Shown piece by piece: positions 33,338-64,000 of a stretch of DNA of 64,000 bases. The notes under the pieces are model-generated. The model searched no databases. It had not been told where the DNA came from and was given only the letters and a program-made list of their open reading frames with translations. Made by a program: the position numbers and the translations under genes. Each line of letters starts with the position of its first letter. Positions within the stretch are counted from its first letter, which is position 1. The DNA comes from Candidatus Hadarchaeota archaeon (GTDB lineage Archaea > Hadarchaeota > Hadarchaeia > Hadarchaeales > Hadarchaeaceae): the NCBI GenBank assembly GCA_040755315.1, contig JBFMBF010000002.1, positions 13,361-77,360 of the forward strand. The letters run 5' to 3'.

Positions 33338-33814
33338 TTATCCGCCAGGAATTTGATCGATAGAGTTTATGACAACTTCTCCGTCGTAAAGAAGCCCCGC
33401 CCGCACGCTTGTTATCCTCACCTGCAGGATGCTTCCAATGGCAAGGTCTCCCTCTCGAAGCTGAACCTCGGCGTACGCCCAGTCGCTCTGTCTGAACCTC
33501 TCCGGGTTCTCAAAGGTCCAGCCGTAAAACTCGTTCTCTATCAACCTAGTCGGATGAGAGGCCCACCCCCTGATCTCATCGGTTGTTGGTTTGGTCAAGT
33601 CAAATCTTATAGTCTCCCCTCCAACATGCTGGATGTGAAATCTTGCTATGTTTTCAGTTATCAGCCCCGCGTATACTGCTATCTCGACATATCTGGGTCT
33701 GAAAGGGGAGTAATATCCGCTCAACCAGGTGGCAACTGGTACAGCAGCTGCGACGGTGATTGCGACGAGGAGAACAGTAGCTATAATCGGAGATATCCCT
33801 CGCCTTTCCATCAT
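33338..33814 (-). CDS. Archaeal type IV pilin-like protein (class III signal peptide, Pilin_N/DUF1628-like)
   Basis: 'MMERRG/ISPIIATVLLVAITVAAAV' is a canonical prepilin-peptidase-type N-terminus. The protein is 158 aa, and its ATGA overlaps the upstream KaiC-like gene. Confidence 0.65.
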   Translation of the reverse strand: MMERRGISPIIATVLLVAITVAAAVPVATWLSGYYSPFRPRYVEIAVYAGLITENIARFHIQHVGGETIRFDLTKPTTDEIRGWASHPTRLIENEFYGWTFENPERFRQSDWAYAEVQLREGDLAIGSILQVRITSVRAGLLYDGEVVINSIDQIPGG

Positions 33815-34710
33815 CTCAACCCCTCAATTAGCTCCGCGCGCGCGACCTCGAAACCGGCAGTTGGGGTTATGGTTACTTCAAACTTCACCACGGCTGCGCC
33901 GTCAAGCCTCGGAAGCAAGCCACGGAACTTCTCGAAATACATTATCCTGCGCCTTCTGGTGGGCCCGGCGGCTTCCCACTTGAAGGTGACGGAGCCGTCC
34001 ACACAGGCGGAGATTTCCTCTTCCCTGCGCTCTTCCAGGAGTTTTGCAGTCATGGGGAGGTAGATGATGCCGTCCCACCTTTTGGCCGCCCTCTGGAGCC
34101 CCCTGAGAAACAGCGTGAAATCGTACCACCTAGTCTCGGAGTCAGAATACAGCCTCGCCAAGTCACTAAGGGTGTAAAGCACTATGGCGTTGTTTGGGGC
34201 ATTAACCGTCAGAAATTCCGCAAGAGACTCAAGCATTGTTTTGGGCTTTATCGCCGGTGCAGCCGCCGTGCGGTGGAGGGTTGCGAAGGCATGTGTCAGC
34301 CCGTGCAGCTTCTCTTTTTCTACTTCCTCTTTTGCCTTGCCCGACACCCATTCGCTGGGAATAGGGGAAGTCCTGAAGTAGTCCTCCGAGAAGTCTCTGA
34401 ACTTGACGTTGTCTCTGAAAAGGGAGTAAAGGTCCTGTTCAAAGCTCATCATGACTTCTTGCCGAATGTCATCTGGCGCACGGGTGAACGTCGTCCACCA
34501 GACATCCCCAGCAGCTGTCGTTGTCGGCTCAGCCGCCTTTATCATCCCCTTTTTCATCGCGTAGGTCATTATGGAAGAGGTCATCAAAAACTCCTTGTGG
34601 CCGGCACCTATCTCAGACTTCAGCAGAACAAGGGATCCTGCCGGAAATCCGCCGCCTATGAGGGAATCCAGAGATAGGACTCCAGTTGGGATTGTCTTCA
34701 TTGAGTACAA
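33811..34710 (-). CDS. KaiC/RecA-superfamily protein with a degenerate P-loop
   Basis: 'IPTGVLSLDSLIGGGFPAGSLVLLKSEIGAGHKEFL' aligns with the KaiC/FlaH-type N-terminus, but Walker A reads GAGHKE rather than GxGK[ST]. The C-terminal 'IMYFEKFRG ... FEVTITPTAGFEV' is KaiC-like. Confidence 0.6.
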   Translation of the reverse strand: MYSMKTIPTGVLSLDSLIGGGFPAGSLVLLKSEIGAGHKEFLMTSSIMTYAMKKGMIKAAEPTTTAAGDVWWTTFTRAPDDIRQEVMMSFEQDLYSLFRDNVKFRDFSEDYFRTSPIPSEWVSGKAKEEVEKEKLHGLTHAFATLHRTAAAPAIKPKTMLESLAEFLTVNAPNNAIVLYTLSDLARLYSDSETRWYDFTLFLRGLQRAAKRWDGIIYLPMTAKLLEERREEEISACVDGSVTFKWEAAGPTRRRRIMYFEKFRGLLPRLDGAAVVKFEVTITPTAGFEVARAELIEGLR

Positions 34711-34737: not shown

Positions 34738-35460
34738 TTATGCGCCAAGCCTTTCCGCCAAGCTGCGGATGGACCTGGTGACGGGGCTTTTTGGTTTGTA
34801 AAATATCGCCGGCCGCCCCACGGTGGCAGCCTCCATCACGGACACATCTTCAGGTATCCCCACAAGTATTTTCGACTTGAGCCGCGCCTGGATGTGGGCC
34901 CGGCCCATCAGCTTGAGCTTTTTGAAGAATGTCGGCTTCCGCACACGGTTTACCGCAACCCCCAGTATTTTCAGCCCCATCGCTTGTCCCACCTCCTCCA
35001 GTTTTGCCGCAGCTTCAACGGCGGAGGGGTCCTGTGTCGTGACGGAGATTATGTCATCAGCCAGCTTAAGTGGGGTGAGGCTGTATTTGTTCAAGCCGGG
35101 GGGAGTATCCATAATAACATAGTCAAAACTGGGCTTCAGCCCCAATATGATGTCAGGCAGCTTCGCAGGGTTTGCTCGGACAAAACTCCCGACGGCGTGG
35201 CCTGACGGAAGAACCCAAACACCGTAGGCTTCGTAAATGCTTTTTTCTGGATCCCCCCTGCCAGACATCAGGTCATGCAGGTTGGGGTCGCGGTCTGTCA
35301 TCCCGAGGAGGGTGCTCAAGCCAGCCATGGCGATATCGGCGTCCACAATCAGAACCTTCCGTCCAAGCCTGCCCAGCATTATGCCTAGATTTTCCGCTAT
35401 GGTGGTCTTGCCGACACCACCCTTGATCGAGGCTATCGTGACCACTCGTCCCATAATCAC
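34738..35460 (-). CDS. minD: MinD/ParA-family P-loop ATPase
   Basis: 240 aa with the deviant Walker A 'SIKGGVGKTTIAENL' and 'LIVDADIAMAGL'. Confidence 0.85.
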   Translation of the reverse strand: MIMGRVVTIASIKGGVGKTTIAENLGIMLGRLGRKVLIVDADIAMAGLSTLLGMTDRDPNLHDLMSGRGDPEKSIYEAYGVWVLPSGHAVGSFVRANPAKLPDIILGLKPSFDYVIMDTPPGLNKYSLTPLKLADDIISVTTQDPSAVEAAAKLEEVGQAMGLKILGVAVNRVRKPTFFKKLKLMGRAHIQARLKSKILVGIPEDVSVMEAATVGRPAIFYKPKSPVTRSIRSLAERLGA

Positions 35461-51005: not shown

Positions 51006-51878
51006 TCAAACTGCATCTTGGGTGTATTCTATTATCCTGTTATTCGTGTTGATTTTGGCGATTATCCTGCCTTTCCTGAATATCCTGACCATCCCGTCCT
51101 CCCCAGAGACTGTTACCCCTGTTGTGTTGGCGGCGGCGGTCATGTTCGCGACGGAGAGGTGCCTCGTTCCCAGTCCTTTGGGGATTTCCACCTTCCTGTC
51201 GGCGTTTAGGTACCGGCAGGCGGCCACAGCCCTGCCGCTCTCGTCGATTATGAAAGCGCCGTCAAAAGAAAGAGCGTATTTTTTCAGGAGATCCCACTGC
51301 CCCTGGTCGGATATCAACACCTCGTAGTTTTCAAATGGGTTGAAATGGTAAAGCTGGTAGGAGAACCTCAAAACATCCTTTGATGCCCCTACCATAAACG
51401 CTGCCCCGATTGGCTTCTGCCCCGGCCCGGCTTTTGAAAGCTCTATTGAAAGGTCCACCACATTTGCCAAGACTGGGTTAGACTCGAATAGCTCCACGGC
51501 TTTTTCCTCACCCGTGACGTTGACCACAAAGAGCGAGCTCGGGAAGCTTGACACGCCGTCGTTCACCAGGCATACCAAGCTCTGGTTTTTTGAGACGAGT
51601 TTCTCCCGCATGCAGACTGAGATGGCTTGACTGATTCTTCCCATACCCTCGTGCCAGGCCTGGATTCTTATCGGCTTGATTTCCGGCTTTTGGCTCAGTT
51701 TTTCAAAGCACTGCTGGTTGGAGGTCACCACTATCGTCGGTCTCTTGTTGCCGTTAGGGGTTGAATTCACCGCTGGCTGAATGTAACCGTCGTTTTCAGT
51801 CAAAATCATCACGGCATTTGCACTAATGTCTGAGGCAAGTTTCAAAGCCGCATCGGCCAAGGCGCGTGGGACTTCCAT
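51006..51878 (-). CDS. dacZ: Diadenylate cyclase, DacZ type
   Basis: 290 aa. The C-terminal DAC domain carries 'DGAFIIDESG' (DGA) and 'GLGTRHLSVANMT' (RHR-type) motifs. The N-terminal domain resembles the pyruvate-kinase C-terminal-like module of DacZ. Confidence 0.75.
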   Translation of the reverse strand: MEVPRALADAALKLASDISANAVMILTENDGYIQPAVNSTPNGNKRPTIVVTSNQQCFEKLSQKPEIKPIRIQAWHEGMGRISQAISVCMREKLVSKNQSLVCLVNDGVSSFPSSLFVVNVTGEEKAVELFESNPVLANVVDLSIELSKAGPGQKPIGAAFMVGASKDVLRFSYQLYHFNPFENYEVLISDQGQWDLLKKYALSFDGAFIIDESGRAVAACRYLNADRKVEIPKGLGTRHLSVANMTAAANTTGVTVSGEDGMVRIFRKGRIIAKINTNNRIIEYTQDAV

Positions 51879-51928: not shown

Positions 51929-52300
51929 TCAGGGGGTTATTATGTCTTTCGAAGGCGAAATTTTCTGTCCAATTTTGATTTTGGCTCCGTTGATTGTCCC
52001 CGCCGGTAGCTCCACAAGGTAACTGGCCTTGTTTTTTGGCCTGTAAAGCCGCCAAGGTTTAATTTTTTCCTTCAGCTCCACCACCCTGAAGCCGGAGTCG
52101 AGATAGACCAGGTCGATTGGGAATCTCATGAAAAACATGTGGATGCCGTAGCGCCCTGGATTGTTGAATTTGAATAGCATACCCTCTCCCTCCGGAAGCT
52201 TTTGCCTCATCATCAGGCCGCGGAATCTTTTCCAGAAAGTGTCTGCTACCTCGATTTTACGTGCCACGGCTTTTCCAGTGGTTTGGTTAAGCAGCTGCAT
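51929..52300 (-). CDS. DUF192 domain protein
   Basis: 'RFRGLMMRQKLPEGEGMLFKF ... HMFFMRFPIDLVYLDSGFRVV ... YLVELPAGT' matches the DUF192 pattern. ATG 52300 is preferred over 52360. Confidence 0.65.
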   Translation of the reverse strand: MQLLNQTTGKAVARKIEVADTFWKRFRGLMMRQKLPEGEGMLFKFNNPGRYGIHMFFMRFPIDLVYLDSGFRVVELKEKIKPWRLYRPKNKASYLVELPAGTINGAKIKIGQKISPSKDIITP

Positions 52301-52362
52301 CAACCAGATTTTGGGACATAGCATAAATCCCTGCGGGCAGTGGCCATCCGCCGCTCCCAAAT

Positions 52363-52399: not shown

Positions 52400-53263
52400 A
52401 TGGTGAGCAAAGCCGGGTTTATTGAAGCCGCGACTGAAATGATTCGCCGCGCCGAGACAAGATTGCCAGCGGACGTAACGCAAGCTTTGGAGGCTTGTTT
52501 GGTGCGTGAGCGGATGCCGGTCGCCAAGCTTCAGCTTAAGCTGGCGCTGAAAAACCTCCAGCTCGCGAAAAGGTCGGTCGCGCCCGTCTGCCAAGATACT
52601 GGGATATTCTCGTTTTTTGTGAAGGGTGGGGCCAACTTGGATTTCGATGTCGCCGCCGCTATCCGAAAATCAGTAGAGATTGCGACCAGCGAAGTTCCTC
52701 TCAGGGTCAACGCGGTGGATCCACTCACGCGAAAGCCTTACCCTACCAACACTGGGCCTTTTCAGCCAGCGGTCCACATCGAGCCCACGGATGGCCATGG
52801 ACTTGAAATAAACCTGCTTGTGAAGGGGGCCGGGACGGAAAACTACAGCAGGCTCTTCATGCTCAAGCCGACCGCTGGTGCCAAAGCCATACATCAGGCC
52901 CTTTCCATGGTGCTCACAGAGGCTGGCGGCAAGATATGTCCCCCTGTGGTGGCTGGGTTGGGTGTGGGTGGTAGCGCGGAAGTTGCCCCGATGCTTGCAA
53001 AAAAAGCCCTTTTAAGGTCAATCACCAAACGCAACCCCGACAGGAAGCTGGCGCGACTAGAGCGGGAGCTTGAGAAGTCGGCGAACCGGTTGGGAGTTGG
53101 TCCCATGGGGCTGGGCGGTCGATGTACTGTTTTGCGCGTGTTCGTCGAGCGCGCCGCCTGCCATACCGCGACACTTCCAGTGGCGATGGCGTTTCAGTGC
53201 TGGCCGGCCCGAAGGGCGAGGGCGCAGCTTGTGCGTGGGAAGCTGAAGGTGGTGGAGCCTTGA
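52400..53263 (+). CDS. Class I (Fe-S) fumarate hydratase / tartrate dehydratase family, alpha subunit
   Basis: 287 aa. 'PVCQDTGIFSFFV' and the overall pattern match the Fe-S hydro-lyase alpha subunit. Confidence 0.8.
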   Translation: MVSKAGFIEAATEMIRRAETRLPADVTQALEACLVRERMPVAKLQLKLALKNLQLAKRSVAPVCQDTGIFSFFVKGGANLDFDVAAAIRKSVEIATSEVPLRVNAVDPLTRKPYPTNTGPFQPAVHIEPTDGHGLEINLLVKGAGTENYSRLFMLKPTAGAKAIHQALSMVLTEAGGKICPPVVAGLGVGGSAEVAPMLAKKALLRSITKRNPDRKLARLERELEKSANRLGVGPMGLGGRCTVLRVFVERAACHTATLPVAMAFQCWPARRARAQLVRGKLKVVEP

Positions 53264-53796
53264 AGGTCCTCAGGCCCCCCCTGACTGACGATGTCGTAAG
53301 GGGGTTAAGGGCAGGAGATTTTGTGTTCATTTCAGGCAGGATCGTCACAGCTAGGGACAAAGTCTACTCAGCAGCGACCTCCGGTAAAAAGCCCCCGATT
53401 GACATGAATGGAGGAGTGATTTATCACTGCGGCCCCCTTGCGAAAAAAACAAAAAGGGGGTGGAAGATCATCTCGGCCGGCCCCACGACGAGCGCCCGCA
53501 TGGACAGCTTGCAAGAGGATTTCGTGAGAATTACCGGGGCGAAGGCGCTGGTCGGCAAAGGAGGGGTGGGGGAAGATGTGGCCAGGGGGATTTCTCGCTT
53601 GGGCTGCGTTTACTTGGCGTTTACTGGAGGTGCCGGGGTGCTCGCCGCCAGCATGATCAAAAAGGTAGAGAAGGTCGTCTGGCCGGAGCTTGGCGCCGCC
53701 GAGGCCATGTGGGTGTTACGGGTCGAAAAATTCGGGCCGCTGGTCGTCGCCATTGACACCCACGGGAAAAACTTGTACCTTCGCGGAAAAACCTGA
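53260..53796 (+). CDS. Class I fumarate hydratase family, beta subunit
   Basis: TTG 53260 overlaps the alpha stop (TTGA). 'LRAGDFVFISGRIVTARDKVY ... IYHCGP ... GPTTSARMD ... LVGKGG' is typical of the beta subunit. Confidence 0.8.
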   Translation: MKVLRPPLTDDVVRGLRAGDFVFISGRIVTARDKVYSAATSGKKPPIDMNGGVIYHCGPLAKKTKRGWKIISAGPTTSARMDSLQEDFVRITGAKALVGKGGVGEDVARGISRLGCVYLAFTGGAGVLAASMIKKVEKVVWPELGAAEAMWVLRVEKFGPLVVAIDTHGKNLYLRGKT

Positions 53797-56700
53797 TTAC
53801 CACTCTTCTTCTTTCGGTGCTTTTGGCATTTTTGGAGCACTTGGACCACTTGGGGCTTTTGGCATTTTTGGAATACCCATTTCAGGTTTTCTAAACTTCT
53901 TGAACGCTACCACAGCCACAACCGCAAACACTCCAACAGCTGCCCCGGCACCGATAATCACAATATCTGGTGCTCCCGTTGTCCCTCCACTAGGTGGTGG
54001 CGGAGATGAGCCTGGCAGAGTTGAGCTTGTTGAAATGTAGATGCTCAAGCTTTGAGTGTCTGTCTGTGAATTCGCATCCATAACTTTCACCGTGAAGTCG
54101 AATGTTTCTTGAGCGGATGGTATTCCTGAAATCGTTCCCCCTGTGGACAAGTTCAATCCAGCTGGGAGCGACCCGCTGTGTAAAGACCATGTATACGGAG
54201 GAGTCCCTCCGGTGGCAGATAGGTTCTGACTGTAAAGTGTGCCCACCGTCCCATTTGGAAGAGTTAGTGTCGTTATATTCGGTGATGAAGATGATGGTGC
54301 AGCGGTAACAGTCAGCGAGAAGACTTGAGATGACTGCGCACCGCCACCGCTTGCAGTTATGGTTATCTGGCAAGAGGAAGCTCCCGTCGCGGTGGTTATC
54401 CTCAACTTTGTTGTAAACGGAGGGGCACCGGAGGATGATCCCACCCATGACGCCGAAATATTGGATGGCAGCGCGTCGTACGACAAGGATGCAGAGGAAA
54501 CCCCGCTTGCTGTAACGCCCACATTCACATCTACGGACTCTCCAGCCACGACAGTAGCGCTGCTTGGAGAGATTGAAACGCTGATGGAGGCACTGCTTCC
54601 AGGCGACCCGGGCTGCTCAGGCGGCGGCGGAGGGGGTGGAGGAGGCGATGATTCTTGAACTGTCACAGATGCAGAGTTTTCCTGAGATACATTGGTGGCA
54701 TTGTCCCAAACCCTAACCTTGATGGTGTGGCCGCCAACACCAAGCCCTGAAACGGTGAAGTTAGCCGAAACATTTTCCCAGTTGCCGCTGTCCACCATTC
54801 GTTCGATGTTTTTCACCCCGCTCATGGCATCCGTCGCGGTCACGATGAAAGAGGCGTCTGCTCCAGAATTAATAGTTTGAGACAACGGGCTCAGGGCCGC
54901 ATGCGGGTTTGTTGCATCGACGCCGAACCATCTGCTCTCTGACCAAGGACCTTGGTTGCCAGCGTTGTCTATGCCGCGGACTCTTCGGTAGTAGTTGTTA
55001 TCGGGAAGCTCGGTTGGAATGGTGAAGATTACCGTATTGTCGCAAACGGCGTTGTCGTAAATCCACGCATTGTCGTAAATCATGTTTTCATGCGAGTTGT
55101 CGGTTGAAATCTGCAGCTGGTACCTCCATAGTTTTTTGTTGTCTGTGTCGTATATCTCTCCCCACATGAAAGTTGGGGCGTTGTCTTTGTGCCAGGTGTT
55201 TTCCAGCCACTGCGGGGGCTGGGCAGGCGCCGTGACATCAATGACAAAGCTCCAGACAAGTTCTGTGTAGTGCGGCCCGCCAGCGCCAGCCGAAATATTG
55301 TCGTACACCTGCAACTTCAAATAGTATGTATTTTCAGCAAGCTCGACTTGCATGAAGTTGTCGGTCCTGATCCTGATGCGTGTCCCGTCCCGGTTTTCAA
55401 GGTAACTATTTTCCGATTGGATAAGCATCGCCCCGGAAAATGTATTTTCGTTGTCAAGCCAAAGCCTGAAGTTCTCCAGGATGCCAGCGCCTTGGTCTGT
55501 GATCAATAACCACAACCGCGGGGTGTTGTCGCGTATGAATCCAATGTTTTCCAATGTCACGTAATTGTTTTCGCGTTTGTTCTCGTTTTCCTCGAATAGG
55601 GTGATTTGCAGCCTGTAGTTCTCAACTTTCGGCGGCTGCGTGTCAATAATCAGTGTCCTGTTTTCAGACCACTGTCCGATGTTGCCAGCGCCTTCTTCCG
55701 CCCTTACCCTCCAGTAATAAAGTCCATCCAGTAGCTCGGCGCCAAGCTGCAGGCTTGAGCTGTTAAGTCCCCCAGAATCATAAATTGCGCTGGAGAAGTC
55801 GTTGTCGTTGTCAACTACGGTCCAGTAGGTCACGCCGCTTTCGTTTGCGACCCCCAGCCAGTCGAAAAGTGGAGTATTGTCATCTTTTAGGAAGTTTACC
55901 GGAGATTCCAAAGTCGGCGCCGCTGGCGGGATTGTGTCTATTAACAACCACCTTGATGAGGAAATAGACGAGTTCCCAGAGTTGTCTGTGGCAACCACCC
56001 TCCAGTAAAGTATCCCGTTCGGCAGCTCGCTTACAGCGGTGTGTGAGTTGTCAAGGATGTTCTCATTGTCGTATACATACGGGAGTGTAAAGTCCGCGTC
56101 ATAGTCCAATTGGATCCGGTATTTAACTCCTGAAAAGTCATAAACGGCTGACCAAGTGAACGATGGAGTGTTGTCGTTTGTAAGGAGCCCATTTTGTGGT
56201 GAACTGAGGGATGGTGCCGGCGGGGCCTGCACGTCTACTTTGAAGCTTCTAGCAGATGTGAACCCACTCGCGTTGCCTGCATTGTCCCCTGATTGCACGG
56301 CCCAGTAGTATAGGTTGTCTGTTAGAGCTTCAATTTCTGAAAGCATGTACAGGTTTTCTTTAATGTTGGACTTTCTGCGGACGACAAGAGCGAGGGCGTT
56401 GTCTTGGGATATGACAAGCTCGTAGTTATCTGCATTTTCAACCGTTGACCACCTGAAAGTCGGTTTTGAGGTGTTTTCCGCGCTCCCTTCGGCAGGCGAC
56501 ACTAATGTCGTGCACGCCGGTTTTTGGGTATCTATTATTAACTTTCTGTTGTCGCTCCAGTTTTCATTGCCAACAATGTCAGAGACTTTGACTCCCCAGA
56601 TGTATGTATTGTCTGGTAGCGCATCCCCGTCCGGAATTGTTTGTTCAGAAATACTCAAACCGCTGTACTGTCTGGCGACAGTGTTGTCAAGTCTCCACAC

Positions 56701-59700
56701 AAAAACGCCGTACTGGACTTCACTGATGTCCACCACCGCTTGCCAGTCGAAGCGTGGGGTGTTGTCGTTTGTGAACGAGTTGTTCTCAGGCGATAGTGGA
56801 GTTGGTTTCAGAACTTTCGTGTCAATGTTGAACCAACTATTGCTTGACGAGTTTTCATTTCCAGCGGTATCTCTAACAAATACCCTCCAGTACCAGAGGC
56901 CGTCGGCCAGGGAGTTCTCCGTGTGTGTGTCGAAGTTGTCGCGGTTTTCCGTCAGCTCGGAGTTGTCGTAGATCGGCGAGGAGAAATCATTGTCATTGTC
57001 TACCTGCAGCCTGTAGTTTTCATTGTTTTCCGACTTCGTCCAGCGGAAGACAGGGGTGCTGTCAGTGACGGTCTCATTAAGCGAGGGTTGTAGGAGCGTG
57101 GGGGCGGCGAGAACCGTATCGAGTCTGAACCGGCCCGCAGCCAGACCCCCGCTGTTCCCCGCTCCATCAATTGTTTTAACCCTCCAGTACCACACATTGT
57201 CATAAGTTAAGGAGTTTTCCATGGTGTGCTCGCTCGGGGCGATGTTTTGTTTGTTGTAGATAGGTGAGCTGAAGTCGTTATTGTCGTCTACTTGGAGAGT
57301 GTACGTGACGCCAGAGGTGTCACCGACGCTGCTCCAGTTGAAAAACGGTGTTGGATCGTTGATGTTTTCTCCGTTTTCTGGTTTTTCAAGTGTCGGGGTG
57401 CCTGGGGGGGCGATGTCAATAATAATCCGCCAGTTATCGGACCACTGCCCAAAGTTCTTGGCATTGTCCATGGCCCTCACCCGCCAGTAGTAAATTCCGG
57501 TGGCTGGGAAGTTGTAGGTGAAGTTGTTGTCATTATTCTCATTTTCGTAAGGCGAGGCGAAACTTGGGTCATCGTCAATCTGGATGGCGTAGTTTTCAAA
57601 CCCTGGGGCCCATTCATCGACATTTTCCACCCATGTGAATGTTTGCGCCGCGCGGTTGTCGGCGGTGTTGTTAGGAGGGGACATTAGTGTTGGTTTTCCT
57701 GGAGCCTTGGTGTCAATGACAAGCCTGTAATAATTGGACCAGCCGCTGAAGTTCCTCGCTCGGTCGTACATGCAGACGCGCCAGTAGTAAACGCCGTCGG
57801 CCAAGCCAGCAGCCAGTGTGTTCTCGTTGTCCAAGATGTTTGCGATTGTCACTGGTGATGAGAAGTCGTTGTCGTTGTCTATCTGTAAAGAGTAGTTCTC
57901 AGGTGTTTCTGGCTGTGTCCACTTGAAAGTTGGGGTGTTGTCATTCTCAAACTTGTTGTTGTCCGGCGAAACGGGCGAGGGTGTGCTCGGCGCAGCGTTG
58001 TCGAGATTGAATGTCCAGTTGTCAGACCACCGCACATTGCCTGCGCGGTCCTGGGAGCCGACCCGCCAGTACCAGGTACCTGTCGCGTTCAGCTCATTTT
58101 CCTGTGGCAACTGGAGTGAGGTGCCGGAGATGTTGTCGTTGTCGTAGCGTGGCGAGGCGTAGTTGGAGTCGTCGTCAACTTGCAGCCTGTAAGCCACGAA
58201 GTTAGTGTCACTTCCACCCATCCACCTGAAGCTCGGGCGGTTGTCATTTTCATAGTTTCCTGTTGTTGGCGAGAGCAGGTAAACAGGCGATGGAAAGGCC
58301 GTGTCCACCGTGAATCGATTTTCTCTCCATGATCCGACGTTACCATTGTCGTCCTGCTCGCGTACCCTCCAGTACCACAGGCCTTCGGGCAATGCGTCCG
58401 CGGGGTGGGTGTCAAAGTTGTCGCGGTTTTCATTTATGCTCAAATCATTGTAGTATGGAGAGGAGAAGTCCTCGTCGTTGTCCACCTGCAGGTGGTATGT
58501 GATTGTTGCCGCGCCGGCCCCTGGGAAGGCCGTCGTCCAGCTGAAATATGGCGTGTTGTCAGAGATAAAATAATTGTTCTCAGGGGTGAGAAGAGGCGAA
58601 GGCCCGCCAGTAAAGGCAGTGTTGACGGTGAACTGCCAGGTGTTTTCGGCCTTGTTTTCGTTTTCTGTGCCGGCGCTGTCCATGCTCCACACGCTCCAGT
58701 AGTAAGTCCCGTCCGGATAACCTGGAGAGGGCTTCGTCCACTTGTTGTCCCCCACCACAACCACATTATCTATCGGTGAGGACAAGTCGTTGTCGTTGTC
58801 GACCATTATCCTGTGCTTGGAAGCGTTTGTCCCGTTCTCCCACTGGAACTGTGGCGTGTTGTCCCTGATAGGTACATTGTTCTCCGGGTAAAACAGGGCG
58901 GGCTTCCCAACATAGCTGTAGGTGAACTTCCAGTTGTCCGACCAGTTTTCTGGGTTTATGCCGTCCCTTGCCGAGACCCGCCAGTACCAGGTACCTGTCG
59001 CGTTCAGCTCATTTTCCTGTGGCAACCGGAGTGAGGTGCCGGAGATGTTATTGTTGTCGTAGCGAGGCAAGGAGAAGTCGTTGTCGTTGTCCACCTGTAG
59101 GTGGTATGTGACGCCATTCGGGTCGTTGACAGTGAGCCATGTGAACATTGGGCGGTTGTCCGCCACTACCGAGCTGTTTTTGGGGGAGTATAAAGTCGGG
59201 GCGCGGACGTAGCTCCATATCACATAAACGGGAGACCACGGGCTCGTGTTTCCAGCCCTGTCAATTGCCATGACTCTCCAATAATAGTTGTCTTCCGGAA
59301 GAACGTTCTCGGGGTGCAGATCAAAGTTGTCAAAGTTGTCTTTGAGGATGTTGTCGTAGATCGGCGAGGAGAAGTCGTTCTCGTTGTCTATGACCAATCT
59401 GTACCTCTCATACCTTGAGCTGCTGAGCAAGAAATCGACTGTAACTGCTTGGTTTTCTGTAACGGTGACGCCGGACACGTTGTCACGGTAGCCGTATGCG
59501 CTAGCTCTCAAAGTGTAGTTGCCCGGTGAACTCGACATGGTATAAAATCCATTTTCGTCAGTGATTCCAGTCACGCTTTTTTCAACAATCGTCACAGTCG
59601 CCCCCCGTATCCCGGCCAGTGTTGAAACGTCCCGCACGTAGCCTTTTATTACAGTTCCTCCCCAGGTTTGTGCCATTGTGACTGCGTCGTACGCGTCGAT

Positions 59701-62700
59701 CCGGCCGTACCCGTACCGATCATCTTTGCCAGCTGTGCCTAGGTCAACCGCTGTCCCCTGCAAAATTTGATAAACATCGCTGACCGTCAATGATGGGTTT
59801 GCTTTCAACATCAAAGCCACTGTGCCAGCAACGTGCGGCGTCGCCATGGATGTTCCGCTATATGACGCCCAAGAGCCGCCAGGAATGGAAGAGTAAACAG
59901 ACACGCCGGGTGCGCTGAAGTCAGGCTTTATGTAGCTGTTCGGCCAGTCGCTTGGTGGGGAAGACCACCAGGCTTTGTATACAGTTTCCCCGCTGCTGAA
60001 CGAGGCGATCACGTCACTTGAGTCGGTTGCGCCAATGCCAAAAGCGTCGTAGACGTTGCCAGGTGAACTAGACGATCCATAGTAGTCGTTCCCAATGGCG
60101 GCAACGGGCACCACACCATTTGCCGCCATATTTCTAATTGGTTCTATCAGTGTGTCGTAGTAACCGTACGCACCAAAAGACATGCTTACAACATGGGCCT
60201 TCTGACCGGCAGGGTTGCCATATTGGTTCACCGGGCTTACCGCCCACTGCATCCCGGCTATGACCTGACTGAAACTCCCGCTACCGTAAGGCAGAACCAG
60301 GGCATGCATGAGTTTTGCGCCTGGTGCGACGCCAATCGCAGTCCCACTCGTGTTATCTCCGAGGACTGTGCCCGACGTGTGGGTGCCGTGGTCATCTGTA
60401 TCATGCGGTGTGGAACTCAAGACTCTGCTGCCTAAATCATCAAACTCTATCCAGCCACCGGGATAGGTGGGATCCTCAGCGTTGTCCGTCAACATCTTGC
60501 CTGTGAGGTCCGGGTGCGAGATGCTGACTCCAGTATCTAGAACTGCCACTCTGATCCCGTCCCCGTTGTCCCCCATCGCCCAAACCTGCGGCGCTCTTAT
60601 TTTATCCAGACCCCAAGCGTTTGTTTGAAGTGTCCCGATGTTTTCAGATTCTGGTTTCGGTGCTTGAATAATGAAATCTTCATGGACTTGTTCCACTTCT
60701 TCTAGAGATACGAGTTCGTTCAGGGTGTCAACATTTACCTCGGCAACTACGGCGTTTGCCAGCCAGAACTGGTTCAAAATTCTGGCGCCCTGCCTGCGTA
60801 GAACATTAGTGGCGTTGGCCTGCAAGTTTTGTGCGTGGTTTTTCATCACTTCGGCAGCTTTGTCGGAGCTAACACCACTCAAATCAGCTGACTTAAGCCT
60901 GACAACTATTTTAATTGTTTCGCCTGGTCGAGCCGATTCAAGCTTACGCGCCAGTCCAGGGGCCAGTTTCTCGCGTGCAGACTTCTTTTGCTGTTTTTCA
61001 CCTGCTCCTGCGGTGTCTGCAGACTGAAATGCCGTAATGCCGTTATTGGCACCAAATGATATTGTGGTGCCAGATGTGCTCCCGCTGCTTGAAAAGCCCG
61101 TAAAACTTGATGATGACAAAACTTCGCTCGAGACCCAGTTATCTATGTTTTCGTTCCATCCGAAGTAGGGGGTATTGTCGTCAAAGCCGGAACCGTTTTC
61201 AGGAGAGATCAAAACAGGTGCGCCAGGCGGAATCGTGTCAATGACGAACCACCTAGTTTCTGACCAGCTACCGGTGTTCCCAGCGGAATCGTATGCGCGC
61301 ACTCGCCAGTAGTAGCGGTTGTCCTGGAGGGCCTCCCCGCCCGGAATGTAGTACTCAGATACAGTTATGCCTGAATATGTGCGTGGGGTGCTGAAGTTAG
61401 GCATGTTGTCGATCTGGAGAGTGTAGTTGGGCCCTGTGGAATCTGAAACTGGTCCCCAGTCAAAGAAGGGGGTGTTGTCATTCTGATGGTTGTCGTTCTC
61501 TGGGGAAACAAGCGCCGGGATCCCTGGGGACGTGGAGTCACTACCACAGCTGGCATCAGCTATTCCCGGGGCCGTTTCGGCGTTGTTGGCGCGATCCTTG
61601 GATGTGGTGTAAAACTGATAGAAACCGTCCCCGTTTGGTGGGGTGAAAGTCCACGACCACGGGCTTGCCAGATCGTTGTCGTTTTCCGTCCAATTACTCC
61701 ACCAAACGTTGTCTGTGGAATAACGGTACCAGAGCGTCGCGCGCTCAACCCCGCTTGGCGCGTCGCTCGCGGTGGCCGTGATTGTGAAAGATGGGGAGTT
61801 TTGCCAGTAGGGGATGATTTGGTTCACACTTGAACTTGGAGGAGTTACATCTACTGTTATCATCCTGTATGCAGACCAGTTCTCGTTGTTCAAGTTGTCC
61901 CTGGCCATAACTCGCCAGTAGTAAACATTGTCTGGGAGTTGATTTTCAATCTCAACACTTACTCCGGTTACATTGCCATTATCGTAAATGATGCTTGTGA
62001 ATGCCGAGTTGCGTGATATTTGAAGCCTGTAAACAACTGGACTTGATGGGTCCGCCACAGCGGCCCAGCTGAAGGTCGGGGCATTGTCGTTCTCGTACTT
62101 CCCATCAGTAGGTGATGACAGGGTTGGTGCAGTGACAGTGTTATCCACCCTCAGCCACCAAGTGTCCGACCAGTTTATGCCAACGTTGCCCGCGTTGTCA
62201 ACGGCGCGAACCCGCCAGTAGTAGATGTTGTCAACCAGAGGAATGCCCGACGTGTAGCTTACAGCTGTCGTGTTTTCCCGGATTTCCGGTGAGGAAAAGC
62301 TCAGGTCGTTGTCAACCCATATTTCATATCTTGCCGCGCCAGCCACGGCCGACCACTGGAAGCTTGGAGTGTTGTCCCTCGTGTTTTCACCCGGCGCCGG
62401 CGAGATGAGCAGTGGGGCGTCTGTGGGGGGTTGGGTATCCACAGAAAACTTGTAGATAGATGACCAGCTTCCGACATACCCCCAACTGTCGCTGGCGCGA
62501 ACCCGCCAGTAGTATGAGTTTTCCCCAAGCGCATTTCCAGCAGGCAGAGTGATGGTGTTGTCAGTCATCCCGGAGTTTTCGTAAAATGGAGATCCGCACC
62601 CAGGGTCATTGTCAAGCTGGAAGTCGTAGGTTACACCGGAAAAGTCAAGTGGCCTGGACCACGTGAATGTAGGGGTGTTGTCGTTTGTGAACGAGTTGTT

Positions 62701-63999
62701 TTCAGGAGTTGCGAGAGTTGGCGGTGATGGGGCGCTAGTGTCAATTGTTATCCGCCTGTTTTCAATCGACCAACCGAAGTTGCCAAAGTTGTCCACCGCC
62801 GCCGCCCTCCAGTACCAGATGCCGTCGGGGATACTGTTTTCGGGTGTGTGCTGGTTGTCCGTTATGCCTACTTTGTAGTAAATATATGGCGCGGTGAAGT
62901 TCGGTTCATTGTCTATCTGGGCGGCGTAAGTTACCGGACTTGAGATGTCTGTGACCTGGGTCCAGCCGAAGGTCGGTGTGTTGTCGTTAGTTAGGATACT
63001 GTCCAATGGAAAAAGTAGCGATGGGGGAGAGACTCGCGTGTCTGTTTTGAATCTTCTCGTTTCGGACCATGCGCCCCAATTCCATGCATCGTCCCTCGCT
63101 TTGGCCCTCCAGAACCAGATGTTGTCCGAAATTTCAGGGACAGTAAGGAAATTGTCGGTCGTTCTGCCCAAGTTCAGGTTTTGTGTGAAACCTTCGTCCG
63201 TGGAGTAGTCTATTTCATACCCCGCGGCCCCGGGAACATTTACCCAGCTGAAGGTGGGCGTGTTGTCGGCCAAGTTTTCGTTGTCTGCGGGAGATAATAG
63301 GGTGGGAGCCACCGCTGGCGGGGAGGTGTCAATGTTTATTTGTCGGGGTTGAGTCCAAGACCCAGCATTTCCAACGTTGTCAACGGCCCTGACTTTCCAA
63401 TACAAAGTGCCATCTGGCAAAGAAATATTCTCGGCCAGAGTGTAATTGATGTATTGGGTAACGTCGGTCAGCCACTGATACCATTCGCCCTCTTTCCAGT
63501 AGCTCCAATACGCAACTCGGGTGTCCGGGATGTTTTGGACTTTTGCCTGCACTGGCTCGGAAAAGTTCACATCGTTGTCTATCCAGATCTCATAAGTCAC
63601 CGGTGGGCTTTGGAGATCCGTCGTGTAAATCCAAGTAAAAATTGGAGTTGAATCATTTATGGTTTGGTCATTGTCTGGTTTGGTTAGGGACGGCGTGCCA
63701 GGCGGAGTGGCGTCTATGATGAAGCTACCTTCGTTGCCCCACGCAAAGTTTGGCACTCCGTCGGCGACCAAAACCTTCCAGTAATAGGTTCCGTCTGACA
63801 GTTCAACAGTTGATGTATAGTTTGAAACTAGCGTCCCATTCTCATTTTCGATTATTGGACCGGAGTAGCTTCCTCCATATACTGTCCACAAAGACCCCCC
63901 GACGTTAACTGTGACGTATTGGGACGGGCCTGAAACAAACGGATTGTCGTCCACGTACAGATAGTATCTGATTGGCCCAACTTGGTCCGTCACGTCTGA
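53797..63999 (-). CDS. Giant membrane-anchored surface protein: FN3-like repeat array with an embedded S8 subtilase (5' end outside the window)
   Basis: A single ORF of more than 3,398 codons is still open at the window edge; the codons upstream of GTG 63993 are sense. It has about 23 repeats of about 100 aa, an internal I9 + S8 + CarboxypepD_reg cassette, a Pro9 hinge, Ig-like/He_PIG-like domains, one C-terminal TM helix and a 34-aa tail. Confidence 0.85.
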   Translation of the reverse strand, partial: SDVTDQVGPIRYYLYVDDNPFVSGPSQYVTVNVGGSLWTVYGGSYSGPIIENENGTLVSNYTSTVELSDGTYYWKVLVADGVPNFAWGNEGSFIIDATPPGTPSLTKPDNDQTINDSTPIFTWIYTTDLQSPPVTYEIWIDNDVNFSEPVQAKVQNIPDTRVAYWSYWKEGEWYQWLTDVTQYINYTLAENISLPDGTLYWKVRAVDNVGNAGSWTQPRQINIDTSPPAVAPTLLSPADNENLADNTPTFSWVNVPGAAGYEIDYSTDEGFTQNLNLGRTTDNFLTVPEISDNIWFWRAKARDDAWNWGAWSETRRFKTDTRVSPPSLLFPLDSILTNDNTPTFGWTQVTDISSPVTYAAQIDNEPNFTAPYIYYKVGITDNQHTPENSIPDGIWYWRAAAVDNFGNFGWSIENRRITIDTSAPSPPTLATPENNSFTNDNTPTFTWSRPLDFSGVTYDFQLDNDPGCGSPFYENSGMTDNTITLPAGNALGENSYYWRVRASDSWGYVGSWSSIYKFSVDTQPPTDAPLLISPAPGENTRDNTPSFQWSAVAGAARYEIWVDNDLSFSSPEIRENTTAVSYTSGIPLVDNIYYWRVRAVDNAGNVGINWSDTWWLRVDNTVTAPTLSSPTDGKYENDNAPTFSWAAVADPSSPVVYRLQISRNSAFTSIIYDNGNVTGVSVEIENQLPDNVYYWRVMARDNLNNENWSAYRMITVDVTPPSSSVNQIIPYWQNSPSFTITATASDAPSGVERATLWYRYSTDNVWWSNWTENDNDLASPWSWTFTPPNGDGFYQFYTTSKDRANNAETAPGIADASCGSDSTSPGIPALVSPENDNHQNDNTPFFDWGPVSDSTGPNYTLQIDNMPNFSTPRTYSGITVSEYYIPGGEALQDNRYYWRVRAYDSAGNTGSWSETRWFVIDTIPPGAPVLISPENGSGFDDNTPYFGWNENIDNWVSSEVLSSSSFTGFSSSGSTSGTTISFGANNGITAFQSADTAGAGEKQQKKSAREKLAPGLARKLESARPGETIKIVVRLKSADLSGVSSDKAAEVMKNHAQNLQANATNVLRRQGARILNQFWLANAVVAEVNVDTLNELVSLEEVEQVHEDFIIQAPKPESENIGTLQTNAWGLDKIRAPQVWAMGDNGDGIRVAVLDTGVSISHPDLTGKMLTDNAEDPTYPGGWIEFDDLGSRVLSSTPHDTDDHGTHTSGTVLGDNTSGTAIGVAPGAKLMHALVLPYGSGSFSQVIAGMQWAVSPVNQYGNPAGQKAHVVSMSFGAYGYYDTLIEPIRNMAANGVVPVAAIGNDYYGSSSSPGNVYDAFGIGATDSSDVIASFSSGETVYKAWWSSPPSDWPNSYIKPDFSAPGVSVYSSIPGGSWASYSGTSMATPHVAGTVALMLKANPSLTVSDVYQILQGTAVDLGTAGKDDRYGYGRIDAYDAVTMAQTWGGTVIKGYVRDVSTLAGIRGATVTIVEKSVTGITDENGFYTMSSSPGNYTLRASAYGYRDNVSGVTVTENQAVTVDFLLSSSRYERYRLVIDNENDFSSPIYDNILKDNFDNFDLHPENVLPEDNYYWRVMAIDRAGNTSPWSPVYVIWSYVRAPTLYSPKNSSVVADNRPMFTWLTVNDPNGVTYHLQVDNDNDFSLPRYDNNNISGTSLRLPQENELNATGTWYWRVSARDGINPENWSDNWKFTYSYVGKPALFYPENNVPIRDNTPQFQWENGTNASKHRIMVDNDNDLSSPIDNVVVVGDNKWTKPSPGYPDGTYYWSVWSMDSAGTENENKAENTWQFTVNTAFTGGPSPLLTPENNYFISDNTPYFSWTTAFPGAGAATITYHLQVDNDEDFSSPYYNDLSINENRDNFDTHPADALPEGLWYWRVREQDDNGNVGSWRENRFTVDTAFPSPVYLLSPTTGNYENDNRPSFRWMGGSDTNFVAYRLQVDDDSNYASPRYDNDNISGTSLQLPQENELNATGTWYWRVGSQDRAGNVRWSDNWTFNLDNAAPSTPSPVSPDNNKFENDNTPTFKWTQPETPENYSLQIDNDNDFSSPVTIANILDNENTLAAGLADGVYYWRVCMYDRARNFSGWSNYYRLVIDTKAPGKPTLMSPPNNTADNRAAQTFTWVENVDEWAPGFENYAIQIDDDPSFASPYENENNDNNFTYNFPATGIYYWRVRAMDNAKNFGQWSDNWRIIIDIAPPGTPTLEKPENGENINDPTPFFNWSSVGDTSGVTYTLQVDDNNDFSSPIYNKQNIAPSEHTMENSLTYDNVWYWRVKTIDGAGNSGGLAAGRFRLDTVLAAPTLLQPSLNETVTDSTPVFRWTKSENNENYRLQVDNDNDFSSPIYDNSELTENRDNFDTHTENSLADGLWYWRVFVRDTAGNENSSSNSWFNIDTKVLKPTPLSPENNSFTNDNTPRFDWQAVVDISEVQYGVFVWRLDNTVARQYSGLSISEQTIPDGDALPDNTYIWGVKVSDIVGNENWSDNRKLIIDTQKPACTTLVSPAEGSAENTSKPTFRWSTVENADNYELVISQDNALALVVRRKSNIKENLYMLSEIEALTDNLYYWAVQSGDNAGNASGFTSARSFKVDVQAPPAPSLSSPQNGLLTNDNTPSFTWSAVYDFSGVKYRIQLDYDADFTLPYVYDNENILDNSHTAVSELPNGILYWRVVATDNSGNSSISSSRWLLIDTIPPAAPTLESPVNFLKDDNTPLFDWLGVANESGVTYWTVVDNDNDFSSAIYDSGGLNSSSLQLGAELLDGLYYWRVRAEEGAGNIGQWSENRTLIIDTQPPKVENYRLQITLFEENENKRENNYVTLENIGFIRDNTPRLWLLITDQGAGILENFRLWLDNENTFSGAMLIQSENSYLENRDGTRIRIRTDNFMQVELAENTYYLKLQVYDNISAGAGGPHYTELVWSFVIDVTAPAQPPQWLENTWHKDNAPTFMWGEIYDTDNKKLWRYQLQISTDNSHENMIYDNAWIYDNAVCDNTVIFTIPTELPDNNYYRRVRGIDNAGNQGPWSESRWFGVDATNPHAALSPLSQTINSGADASFIVTATDAMSGVKNIERMVDSGNWENVSANFTVSGLGVGGHTIKVRVWDNATNVSQENSASVTVQESSPPPPPPPPPEQPGSPGSSASISVSISPSSATVVAGESVDVNVGVTASGVSSASLSYDALPSNISASWVGSSSGAPPFTTKLRITTATGASSCQITITASGGGAQSSQVFSLTVTAAPSSSSPNITTLTLPNGTVGTLYSQNLSATGGTPPYTWSLHSGSLPAGLNLSTGGTISGIPSAQETFDFTVKVMDANSQTDTQSLSIYISTSSTLPGSSPPPPSGGTTGAPDIVIIGAGAAVGVFAVVAVVAFKKFRKPEMGIPKMPKAPSGPSAPKMPKAPKEEEW
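53902..53964 (-). other. C-terminal transmembrane anchor of the giant protein
   Basis: The hydrophobic helix 'IVIIGAGAAVGVFAVVAVVAF' is followed by KKFRK. Confidence 0.8.
54035..54283 (-). other. He_PIG-like 'putative Ig' domain inside the giant ORF
   Basis: 'LPNGTVGTLYSQNLSATGGTPPYTWSLHSGSLPAGLNLSTGGTISGIPSAQETFDFTVKVMDANSQTDTQSLSI' is the classic L-P-x-G-x-x-G-x-x-Y ... GG-x-x-P-Y-x-[WF] ... LP-x-GL-x-L ... G-x-[IL]-S-G-x-P pattern. Confidence 0.75.
54619..54645 (-). other. Pro9 hinge inside the giant ORF
   Basis: Nine consecutive proline codons ('SSPPPPPPPPPEQPGSPG') separate the repeat region from the C-terminal Ig-like domains. Confidence 0.9.
58060..58149 (-). repeat. 90-nt tract, copy 1, 87/90 identical to 58975..59064
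   Basis: GACCCGCCAGTACCAGGTACCTGTCGCGTTCAGCTCATTTTCCTGTGGCAAC... encodes 'RYDNDNISGTSLQLPQENELNATGTWYWRV'. The first 51 nt are identical between the two copies. Confidence 0.85.
58975..59064 (-). repeat. 90-nt tract, copy 2, 87/90 identical to 58060..58149
   Basis: It encodes 'RYDNNNISGTSLRLPQENELNATGTWYWRV' and lies exactly 915 nt (three repeat units) from copy 1. The flanks are diverged. Confidence 0.85.
59425..59660 (-). other. Carboxypeptidase-regulatory-like beta-sandwich domain inside the giant ORF
   Basis: 'GTVIKGYVRDVSTLAGIRGATVTIVEKSVTGITDENGFYTMSSSPGNYTLRASAYGYRDNVSGVTVTENQAVTVDFLL' matches the CarboxypepD_reg pattern. Confidence 0.7.
59690..60620 (-). other. S8 subtilisin-like serine protease catalytic domain inside the giant ORF
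   Basis: The catalytic triad contexts are D in 'IRVAVLDTGV' (60535..60537), H in 'DDHGTHTSGT' (60388..60390) and S in 'SGTSMATPHVAG' (59848..59850). Confidence 0.9.
60665..60915 (-). other. Peptidase inhibitor I9-like propeptide region inside the giant ORF
   Basis: The stretch 'TIKIVVRLKSADLSG ... ARILNQFWLANAVVAEVNVDTLNELVSLEEVEQVHEDFIIQA' has an alpha/beta pattern typical of subtilase propeptides. Confidence 0.6.
61135..63999 (-). repeat. N-terminal block of about 8.5 FN3-like repeats (period about 290-315 nt)
   Basis: The recurrent consensus is 'P.L.SP.....DNTPTF.W ... Y.LQ[IV]DND.[DN]FSSP ... L.DG.YYWRVRA.D.AGN...WS....F.IDT..P'. The units are diverged at the DNA level. One SGV-type Ig-like domain is intercalated. 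Confidence 0.8.
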
Positions 64000-64000
64000 C

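Follow-up and report, generated by a model that had tools for sequence, protein, structure and literature searches.

Among archaea, Staphylothermus marinus carries tetrabrachion, a membrane-anchored stalk with a subtilisin-like protease (STABLE protease) part-way along it; its stalk is a coiled coil, to which the protease binds non-covalently as a separate chain. In Gram-positive bacteria the cell-envelope proteinases, lactocepin PrtP and the streptococcal C5a peptidase ScpA/ScpB, combine a propeptide-bearing subtilase with fibronectin-type domains and a C-terminal anchor (PMC10410607). Subtilase (peptidase S8) domains have also been noted before in giant proteins, in that case of Omnitrophota and at their N-termini (bioRxiv 10.1101/2023.11.21.568195). 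The subject here is a giant gene in a 64,000-nucleotide stretch of DNA from a Candidatus Hadarchaeota archaeon (the window; positions 13,361 to 77,360 of contig JBFMBF010000002.1, assembly GCA_040755315.1), whose product has a beta-sandwich stalk and, unlike tetrabrachion, has its protease in the same chain. The stalk is an array of ~100-residue fibronectin type III (FN3)-like repeats, called type-A units below. Surface-anchored subtilases and giant immunoglobulin (Ig)-repeat adhesins are both well known, and the combination of such parts is not new, as the JGI protein P0145 has an N-terminal S8 domain followed by 22 type-A units. What is new is an entire pro-protease lodged in one loop of a single FN3-like module, mid-array in an archaeal fibre of more than 4,000 residues, together with homologues in which the site is empty; the literature consulted gave no description of a nested mid-array S8 domain with empty-site homologues.

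The gene is a minus-strand open reading frame (ORF), and residues are numbered here by the part of it in the window unless full-length numbering is given. Its protease cassette, residues 954-1527 (window 59419-61140), consists in order of a linker, a predicted I9-like propeptide, the S8 catalytic domain and a CarboxypepD_reg domain, and starts at residue 1683 of 4,129 in full-length numbering. When the pieces on either side of it, residues 918-953 (the N-part) and 1528-1602 (the C-part), are joined, they score 100 bits (E 1e-30) against a leave-one-out hidden Markov model (HMM) of the repeat, where intact units score 106-142 bits. As the flanking pieces are complementary and their joined score is near that of an intact unit, the cassette can be placed in the loop between strands B and C, after the 'F.W' strand and before the 'Y.LQVD' strand, and this host loop already varies in length among type-A units. 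Profile comparison shows the cassette to be nested in a single predicted type-A module, about the seventeenth of some 30 and about half-way along the protein. An AlphaFold2 (AF2) model of residues 915-1604 was made from an alignment in which intact repeats carried a gap over the insert, with the cassette given no alignment depth; inclusion of protease homologues with MAFFT misplaced the repeat rows, and the correct split was obtained only with zero or one homologue. In the model the N-part has a predicted local distance difference test (pLDDT) score of 83-95 and the C-part of 89-97, with the strand pattern of an intact unit, and the cassette is below 50. The nested topology, a further Ig-like domain (type B) and the lineage-specific nature of the cassette, both treated below, were overlooked in an earlier note made from the letters of the window.

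The earlier note had recognized the protease cassette itself, and this stands: the PF00082 match of 162.5 bits covers residues 1146-1432 and the full profile (1-288), and the triad is intact. The catalytic motifs are VAVLDTG (Asp1155), HGTHTSG (His1204), AAIGND (oxyanion Asn1304) and GTSMATPH (Ser1384), and those of the triad and the oxyanion Asn align with subtilisin E. The putative propeptide aligns with those of pro-subtilisin E (3WHI) and pro-Tk-subtilisin (2E1P). Pfam did not list Inhibitor_I9 for the protein; in free-standing relatives (P0001-P0006) the pro-region, located after the signal peptide, is homologous to this part of the cassette. These relatives are the nearest to the cassette, at 53-54% identity and 89-96% coverage; they are ordinary secreted proteases, from Bathyarchaeia, Chloroflexota, Desulfurococcales and others, in which a signal peptide is followed by propeptide, S8 and CarboxypepD_reg. 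Together with P0144 these free-standing proteases (sources include Ignisphaera as well) have the same domain order as the cassette, but they start with a signal peptide, have one to three CarboxypepD_reg domains, are not in a repeat array and mostly possess extra C-terminal domains unlike anything in the cassette.

With PrtP and C5a peptidase, which are surface-displayed and cut external proteins, the likeness is in the subtilase, its putative propeptide, the fibronectin-type domains and the C-terminal anchor. The differences are several. Their protease is N-terminal, right after the signal peptide, whereas that of the window protein is nested mid-protein in an FN3-like domain; they have a PA domain, for which the window protein gave no Pfam match at E up to 0.01; their anchor is of the LPXTG/sortase type in contrast to a transmembrane (TM) helix with no LPXTG; and they have 3-5 modules and a Gram-positive host as against about 30 modules and an archaeal host.

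The scaffold is also found without the protease. L003 (an uncultured archaeon, GTDB species representative, CALJER010000046.1) codes for more than 3,756 residues of the same scaffold; the type-A profile matches it 29-31 times, its type-B domain is in the corresponding position, and S8 is absent. In a global alignment of residues 818-1700 with it there is a single query-only segment of 571 residues (959-1529). The empty site of L003 reads '...RWDERADEWAPS' followed directly by 'FERYIIQIAAD...', where the window protein has '...GWNENIDNWVSS', then the 571 residues, and then 'YERYRLVIDNEND...'. In a MAFFT alignment of residues 818-1700, P0269, a Candidatus Hadarchaeales fragment whose 90% cluster is represented by P0134, is 61.5% identical (304 positions) and L003 59.5% (about 305 positions); both are without the cassette and have the corresponding type-A unit uninterrupted. 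P0123, complete at 3,729 residues and with a signal-peptide-like N-terminus, is colinear with the full-length protein at 49% identity over 1,568 residues before the cassette and 42% over 1,671 residues after it. Overall, these colinear giants (P0123, P0126, L003 and P0134/P0269) share the scaffold at 42-61% identity and have the type-B domain at the same position, but none has the S8 cassette.

At the cassette position P0123 (locus L001) has an unrelated 343-residue module, its residues 1615-1957, that opens with short Trp-rich repeats and is without a Pfam match, and P0126 also bears an unrelated, Pfam-less module there, which suggests that this position of the scaffold is a site of module exchange. 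Orthology with P0123 on grounds of synteny was considered and set aside: its locus is not syntenic with the window, the neighbours differ, and it may be a paralogue or a rearranged locus. The C-terminal stalk domains differ too, being of Flg_new type in P0123.

Among 288 retrieved proteins and 56 fetched loci, the window protein is the only one with S8 inside a long type-A array, and no further mid-array S8 insertion was found there besides the P0158 family. P0158 (2,129 residues, archaeal metagenome-assembled genome (MAG) GCA_964475145.1) carries an S8 pro-protease module in its type-A unit, at the same loop, and the joined halves of that unit score 59.0 bits compared with 40.9 for the C-part alone. 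It differs in having one type-A unit and no long array, in a second S8 domain at its N-terminus, and in a larger insert (~800 residues, with two CarboxypepD_reg domains and an extra domain); identity between the cassettes is 44%. A homologue search with the junction of CarboxypepD_reg and C-part gave no match.

Codon usage sets the cassette apart from its surroundings. The correlation of relative synonymous codon usage with that of housekeeping genes in the window is 0.27 for the cassette, as against 0.61-0.80 for equal-sized windows of repeats and 0.59-0.85 for chunks of the housekeeping genes. Taken together, the split module, the empty-site homologues and the deviant codon usage indicate that the cassette was acquired in this lineage, probably by insertion of a segment of a secreted-protease gene into an older adhesin-like scaffold. 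A search with the cassette gave no self-match; the 4,129-residue protein is hidden from representative-only searches because its 90% cluster is represented by a 473-residue fragment, P0124. That fragment came up in a profile-free search among 1.84 billion representative proteins; it differs very little from the query, and its cluster contains the full protein (label P0268). It lies on an independent contig of another bin and, with 2 substitutions, runs from repeats through the N-part into 41 linker residues. P0124 and a further fragment, P0267, were deposited under a 'Candidatus Zixiibacteriota bacterium' MAG and are at least 99.5% identical to the Hadarchaeota gene; they are probably mis-binned short contigs.

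The modules of the protein, by window coordinates and with residues of the window ORF, are as follows.

53797..63999, minus strand: giant ORF, from its translation; exact substring of MEW6221857.1, residues 730-4129
61843..63999, minus strand: N-side type-A array, residues 1-719; HMM of the protein's own repeats, per-unit E 1e-12 to 4e-44
61540..61842, minus strand: type-B Ig-like domain, residues 720-820; weak Big_7 and Big_13 matches
61243..61539, minus strand: intact type-A unit directly before the split unit, residues 821-919/923; HMM E 3e-41
61141..61248, minus strand: N-part of the split type-A unit, residues 918-953; model positions 2-35, strands A, A' and B
60973..61140, minus strand: Ser/Gly/Thr-rich linker at the cassette start, residues 954-1009; seen in the sequence, no counterpart in L003
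60595..60972, minus strand: I9-like subtilase propeptide, residues 1010-1135; alignment with pro-subtilisin E and pro-Tk-subtilisin
59665..60594, minus strand: peptidase S8 catalytic domain, residues 1136-1445; PF00082, 162.5 bits against a cut-off of 21.8
59425..59649, minus strand: CarboxypepD_reg beta-sandwich, last domain of the cassette, residues 1451-1525; PF13620, 50.6 bits against a cut-off of 32.3
59194..59418, minus strand: C-part of the split type-A unit, residues 1528-1602; model positions 38-98
54913..59217, minus strand: C-side array, residues 1595-3029; 12 intact type-A units and 2 degenerate units (2790-2923 and 2924-3029)
54646..54912, minus strand: OmpL47-type or Big_7-like Ig domain, residues 3030-3118; NCBIfam NF047446, 59.3 bits against 40, and Big_7, E 7e-4
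54619..54645, minus strand: hinge of nine prolines (Pro9), residues 3119-3127; seen in the sequence
54277..54618, minus strand: Ser-rich segment, possibly Ig-like, residues 3128-3241; weak Pfam matches only, E above 0.01
54040..54276, minus strand: He_PIG putative Ig domain, residues 3242-3320; PF05345, E 1.4e-12, 48.3 bits against 24
53965..54033, minus strand: Pro/Ser/Gly stalk, residues 3323-3345; seen in the sequence
53902..53964, minus strand: single C-terminal TM helix, residues 3346-3366; Kyte-Doolittle
53800..53901, minus strand: basic Pro/Lys-rich 34-residue tail ending KEEEW, predicted cytoplasmic, residues 3367-3400; seen in the sequence

The ORF has 3,400 sense codons with a stop at 53797-53799, no internal stop in its translation and a GC content of 0.505-0.536, similar to the remainder of the window; its frame is still open at the window edge, and the GTG at 63993 in the open-reading-frame list is merely the first start-like codon and not the true start. 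An open frame of 10.2 kb at 52% GC would have a probability of (61/64)^3400, about e^-163 by our own arithmetic, and cannot arise by chance. The window ORF is an exact substring of GenBank MEW6221857.1 (4,129 residues), titled 'MAG: Ig-like domain-containing protein [Candidatus Hadarchaeota archaeon]' and encoded on an 87,983-bp contig; the gene thus extends 729 codons beyond the window, is complete in the public record, and has its C-terminal 82% in the window. What the earlier note had said of a single uninterrupted frame running past the window edge is upheld, there being no overlooked stop or frameshift in the translation. Nor is there a characterised orthologue, which the note had named among its refuting conditions; the deposited protein is itself uncharacterised under a generic machine-given name.

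The full protein (456 kDa, pI 4.3, 8.7% Asn, 7.8% Asp, 66 N-X-S/T sequons, seven Cys) has about 30 diverged ~100-residue type-A FN3-like modules and a few other Ig-like modules. The type-A consensus, from the HMM of the protein itself, is P.L.SP.N....DNTP.F.W..V.D...V.Y.LQVDND.DFSSP.Y......(variable)...L.DG.YYWRV.A.D.AGN.G.WS....F.IDT..P. and the AF2 model of one unit is an eight-strand sandwich with a pLDDT of 94 and a predicted template modelling score of 0.86. Foldseek top matches, at TM-scores of 0.55-0.70, are the FN3-like N-domain of alpha-L-rhamnosidase (3W5N), FN3 domains, the N-domain of alginate lyase Atu3025 and Salmonella SiiE, so that the FN3-like character read by eye in the translation is borne out. 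In a sequence-profile search the repeat matched Atu3025 (N-domain, E 6e-7) and SiiE (E 0.003). For the whole protein, Pfam reports Big_13 at 193.8 bits (cut-off 27) and Ig_Rha78A_N at 150.1 (cut-off 27.4), scores that are summed over many units. When six single units were run, Big_13 was reported in five, at 16.3-33.1 bits with one at or above 27, and Ig_Rha78A_N gave 14.4-29.7 bits, a single unit reaching 27.4 or more; SusE and DUF4962 were similar. Most single-unit scores being below cut-offs, there is no clean mapping to a described family, an outcome that the earlier note had counted as refuting, and by these profiles the type-A units are divergent members of the Big_13/Ig_Rha78A_N clan and not clean members of one family.

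SiiE resembles the window protein in its long arrays of ~100-residue beta-sandwiches (PDB 2YN3/2YN5; Foldseek E ~1e-3, TM-score ~0.6) but is without a protease. It is Ca2+-binding according to the title of its PDB entry, and is in this a model for the calcium idea of the earlier note, which had proposed a 'D-N-D-N-D-F-S-S-P' loop in most repeats as a potential binding site. For this loop, which comes after strand C, 'most repeats' holds only loosely: a strict motif, D[ND][DNE]x[DNS][FLY][STA]SP, is in nine in-window units, and a relaxed form in about 13-17 of 22. Calcium binding by it is putative. SiiE is exported by type I secretion, whereas the C-terminus of the window protein is a TM anchor; a relationship to RTX or type I adhesins was rejected on that ground and for lack of any match to an RTX-type Pfam family.

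Divergence among the units is considerable, with 32-46% pairwise amino-acid identity. At the DNA level the repeated stretches are short, with 60-86% identity; the longest pair measures 186 nt (80%), and no period-300 tandem repeat was detected in the DNA; recent tandem amplification and assembly collapse are both out on these figures. Colinearity with homologues that are 42-49% identical across more than 1,500 residues implies that the array predates the divergence of the lineages, so its description as old and diverged, and not a product of assembly collapse, is sound. The count of about 8.5 repeats before and 14.5 after the protease fared less well: the order was right, but the two 'half repeats' are the two halves of the one unit that the cassette splits, with 0.65 of that unit on the C-side. 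Similarly, the N-side block is mostly type-A, with one unit cut by the window edge and six intact (95-226, 222-322, 323-422, 419-524, 520-621 and 622-719), but residues 720-820 are a separate type-B Ig-like domain that had not been listed. The degenerate pair of units in the C-side array (2790-2923, 2924-3029) is conserved in P0123, P0126 and L003.

Unit 95-226 (window 63322-63717) contains a small Trp/Tyr-rich internal insertion ('AYWSYWKEGEWYQWLTDVTQYINYT'), so that the HMM matches it in two pieces. Units of L003 are also split, by inserts of ~35-150 residues at other positions, and loop insertion into type-A units seems to be a recurring theme. The type-B domain has the pattern 'IPYW..TATASD..SGV..LWYRYS..PWSW.F..G.G.YQFY'; it was found in 41 of the 288 retrieved proteins and is a repeating unit in other giant archaeal proteins (P0121, P0122, P0125, P0131-P0133 and others). 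Type-A arrays also occur in Chloroflexota and Lindowbacteria. A group of even larger proteins of 5,200-7,800 residues (P0127/P0128, also P0275 and P0277), from Hadesarchaea-type MAGs and JGI metagenomes, has about 30 type-A units, a TM helix and then a cytoplasmic P-loop domain, with one cluster member named 'DUF87 domain-containing'; by its domain content the group is a predicted surface fibre fused to a HerA/FtsK-like ATPase. Its members have long runs of a 'VESWSGTV'-type Trp repeat like the start of the central module of P0123.

The C-terminal order in the earlier note (SGV-type Ig-like domain, Pro9, Ser-rich domain, He_PIG, stalk, TM helix, 34-residue tail) was reproduced. The helix is the sole 19-residue window in the whole 4,129 residues with a Kyte-Doolittle mean above 1.5 (peak 2.82), and is followed by KKFRK and a positive-inside tail. 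With one C-terminal TM helix and a short basic tail the predicted topology is type I, and about 4,070 residues would be outside the cell. Anchoring by the PGF-CTERM/archaeosortase route was rejected: no PGF, PEF or VPXXXP motif is present, the helix is preceded by ...GGTTGAPD and followed by a 34-residue tail, and there was no NCBIfam model match. The tail holds a duplicated 'PKMPKAP'. P0123 and P0126 share the TM helix and a '...KEEW/KEKW' tail with the window protein, and the '...GIP...K-E-E/K-W' end that is common to them is absent from the other 285 retrieved proteins; it could be a docking or sorting motif.

The reading favoured here, with rather better than even confidence, is that of a membrane-anchored fibre with a lineage-acquired nested pro-subtilase, acting as a cell-tethered extracellular protease and adhesin. 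On this reading the split sandwich would still fold and the protease would hang sideways off a continuous fibre. FN3-like modules are ~4 nm long, and at roughly 4 nm per module the length of the fibre would be beyond 100 nm. The propeptide would fold the enzyme and then be cleaved off; such cleavage would nick the chain, and the distal half might then be held only by strand complementation, through the three strands of the N-part in the split module. The repeat array would serve as spacer and adhesin, and the tethered enzyme would degrade external proteins and so supply peptides to a heterotrophic archaeon. Sugar and amino-acid heterotrophy has been assigned to most Hadarchaeota MAGs (PMC10811742), and tethered external proteolysis would suit the amino-acid heterotrophy there inferred for most of them. 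The protein is in this respect a concrete candidate for peptide acquisition by uncultured subsurface Hadarchaeota. It is also a clean natural example of domain insertion giving giant surface proteins enzymatic functions, it identifies a type-A loop tolerant of very large inserts, and it raises the question of what becomes of a fibre if the protease within it can mature only by cutting the chain.

That question leads to the alternative that survives best, though we think it unlikely, in which the subtilase cuts mainly its own fibre as a self-processing or shedding device and feeding is not its main role. Autocleavage would nick the chain and the distal half of ~1,650 residues would be released then, under force, or by further cleavage, which can be likened to SEA- and GAIN-domain autoproteolysis in mucins and adhesion receptors. 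The propeptide is N-terminal of the catalytic domain within the chain, so that canonical maturation must break the backbone, a 56-residue flexible linker precedes it, and there is published speculation that S8 domains cut giant proteins into pieces (bioRxiv 10.1101/2023.11.21.568195). However, the closest relatives of the cassette are ordinary multi-domain secreted proteases, and the occurrence of homologous fibres without a protease means that self-processing is not intrinsic to the scaffold. A more specific proposal, to which similarly little credence is given, is that the nested pro-subtilase makes its FN3-like module an autoproteolytic breakpoint, with the distal adhesive half of ~1,650 residues hanging on three beta-strands. 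If true, this would be an archaeal, protease-driven analogue of SEA/GAIN cleavage, permitting force- or signal-dependent shedding of the distal half with the active protease staying cell-tethered.

The same parts could alternatively make a contact-dependent weapon or partner fibre, with the adhesin reaching neighbours or particles and the protease degrading surface proteins, e.g. S-layers, in predation, competition or symbiosis. The position of the protease about 2,000 residues from the membrane anchor is in keeping with such reach, type-A-like domains are accessory modules in polysaccharide-active enzymes, and giant proteins of Omnitrophota with adhesion repeats and hydrolases have been linked to attachment and cell-wall degradation (bioRxiv 10.1101/2023.11.21.568195). 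Yet the window has no toxin, immunity or secretion-system genes, and by sequence alone this role is not separable from nutritional proteolysis; it is judged distinctly improbable. No better placed is the notion of a structural envelope protein or adhesin whose protease is a latent or inactive passenger, inhibited for example by its tethered propeptide. Most family members (P0123, P0126, L003, P0134/P0269) are indeed without a protease and the cassette looks like a late addition, but neither the triad and oxyanion Asn nor the motifs around them are damaged, the reading frame runs on through the cassette, which has kept its propeptide and CarboxypepD_reg domain, and near-identical population variants have only conservative or scattered substitutions, 2 in 443 residues. 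We rate the chances of a dormant protease as slim.

Weakest is an assembly chimera, with the protease gene of another organism spliced into the repeat gene by the assembler: the codon usage of the cassette is unlike that of the rest of the gene and of neighbouring genes, and the region is fragmented in a second assembly, where one contig stops exactly at the 3' boundary, but this is very improbable given that both junctions are in frame, that the two flanks complement each other exactly as halves of a single repeat unit, that the insertion loop is the same as in the unrelated P0158, that the independent contig of P0124 runs through the N-part into the linker, and that the repeats are too diverged in DNA to mislead an assembler.

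Several points nevertheless weigh against the tethered, lineage-acquired protease favoured above and need to be kept in mind. Deviant codon usage in the cassette is also to be expected from chimeric assembly, and the 3' junction, from cassette to C-part, has no independent spanning contig, P0267 being the one that ends exactly there. As the nearest relatives of the cassette are only 54% identical, 'recent' acquisition is a relative term. Support from AF2 for re-assembly of the split module is biased by the use of an alignment of intact repeats, and was judged by pLDDT and secondary structure. The annotated N-terminus (MSFYFVSSIGAGVWPSAP..., also given as MSFYFVSSIGAGVWPSAPDL...) presents no convincing signal peptide; the annotated start of MEW6221857.1 may be mis-called. 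Finally, no peptide transporter or secretion genes adjoin the giant gene within the window. Scans of genome and metagenome contigs with residues 700-1150 gave no match.

Other genes of the window include archaeal housekeeping genes, for TiaS, an archaeal CCA-adding enzyme, ATP-dependent DNA ligase and a DHH-CID-domain protein, and an archaeal origin of the giant ORF fits with these neighbours. Further neighbours are an IF-2B-family protein, a phosphoglycerate mutase of PhosphMutase/Metalloenzyme type and a split class-I fumarase; neither tRNA genes nor Rfam families were found in the window. The plus-strand Fumerase_C ORF (53122-53796) is convergent with the giant ORF, whose stop codon occupies 53797-53799, with 0 intergenic bases, and the abutting stop codons (53794-53799) leave no room for separate terminators. 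Elsewhere on the minus strand, ORFs at 32151-33272 (373 residues) and 33811-34710 (299 residues) gave no Pfam match with an E value of 1e-4 or less and are adjoined by a gene for a MinD/ParA-type ATPase at 34738-35460. The minus-strand gene at 51006-51878 encodes a 290-residue protein with pyruvate-kinase-C-like and diadenylate cyclase domains, which we take to resemble the archaeal c-di-AMP synthase DacZ, and a DUF192 gene (51929-52360) adjoins it.

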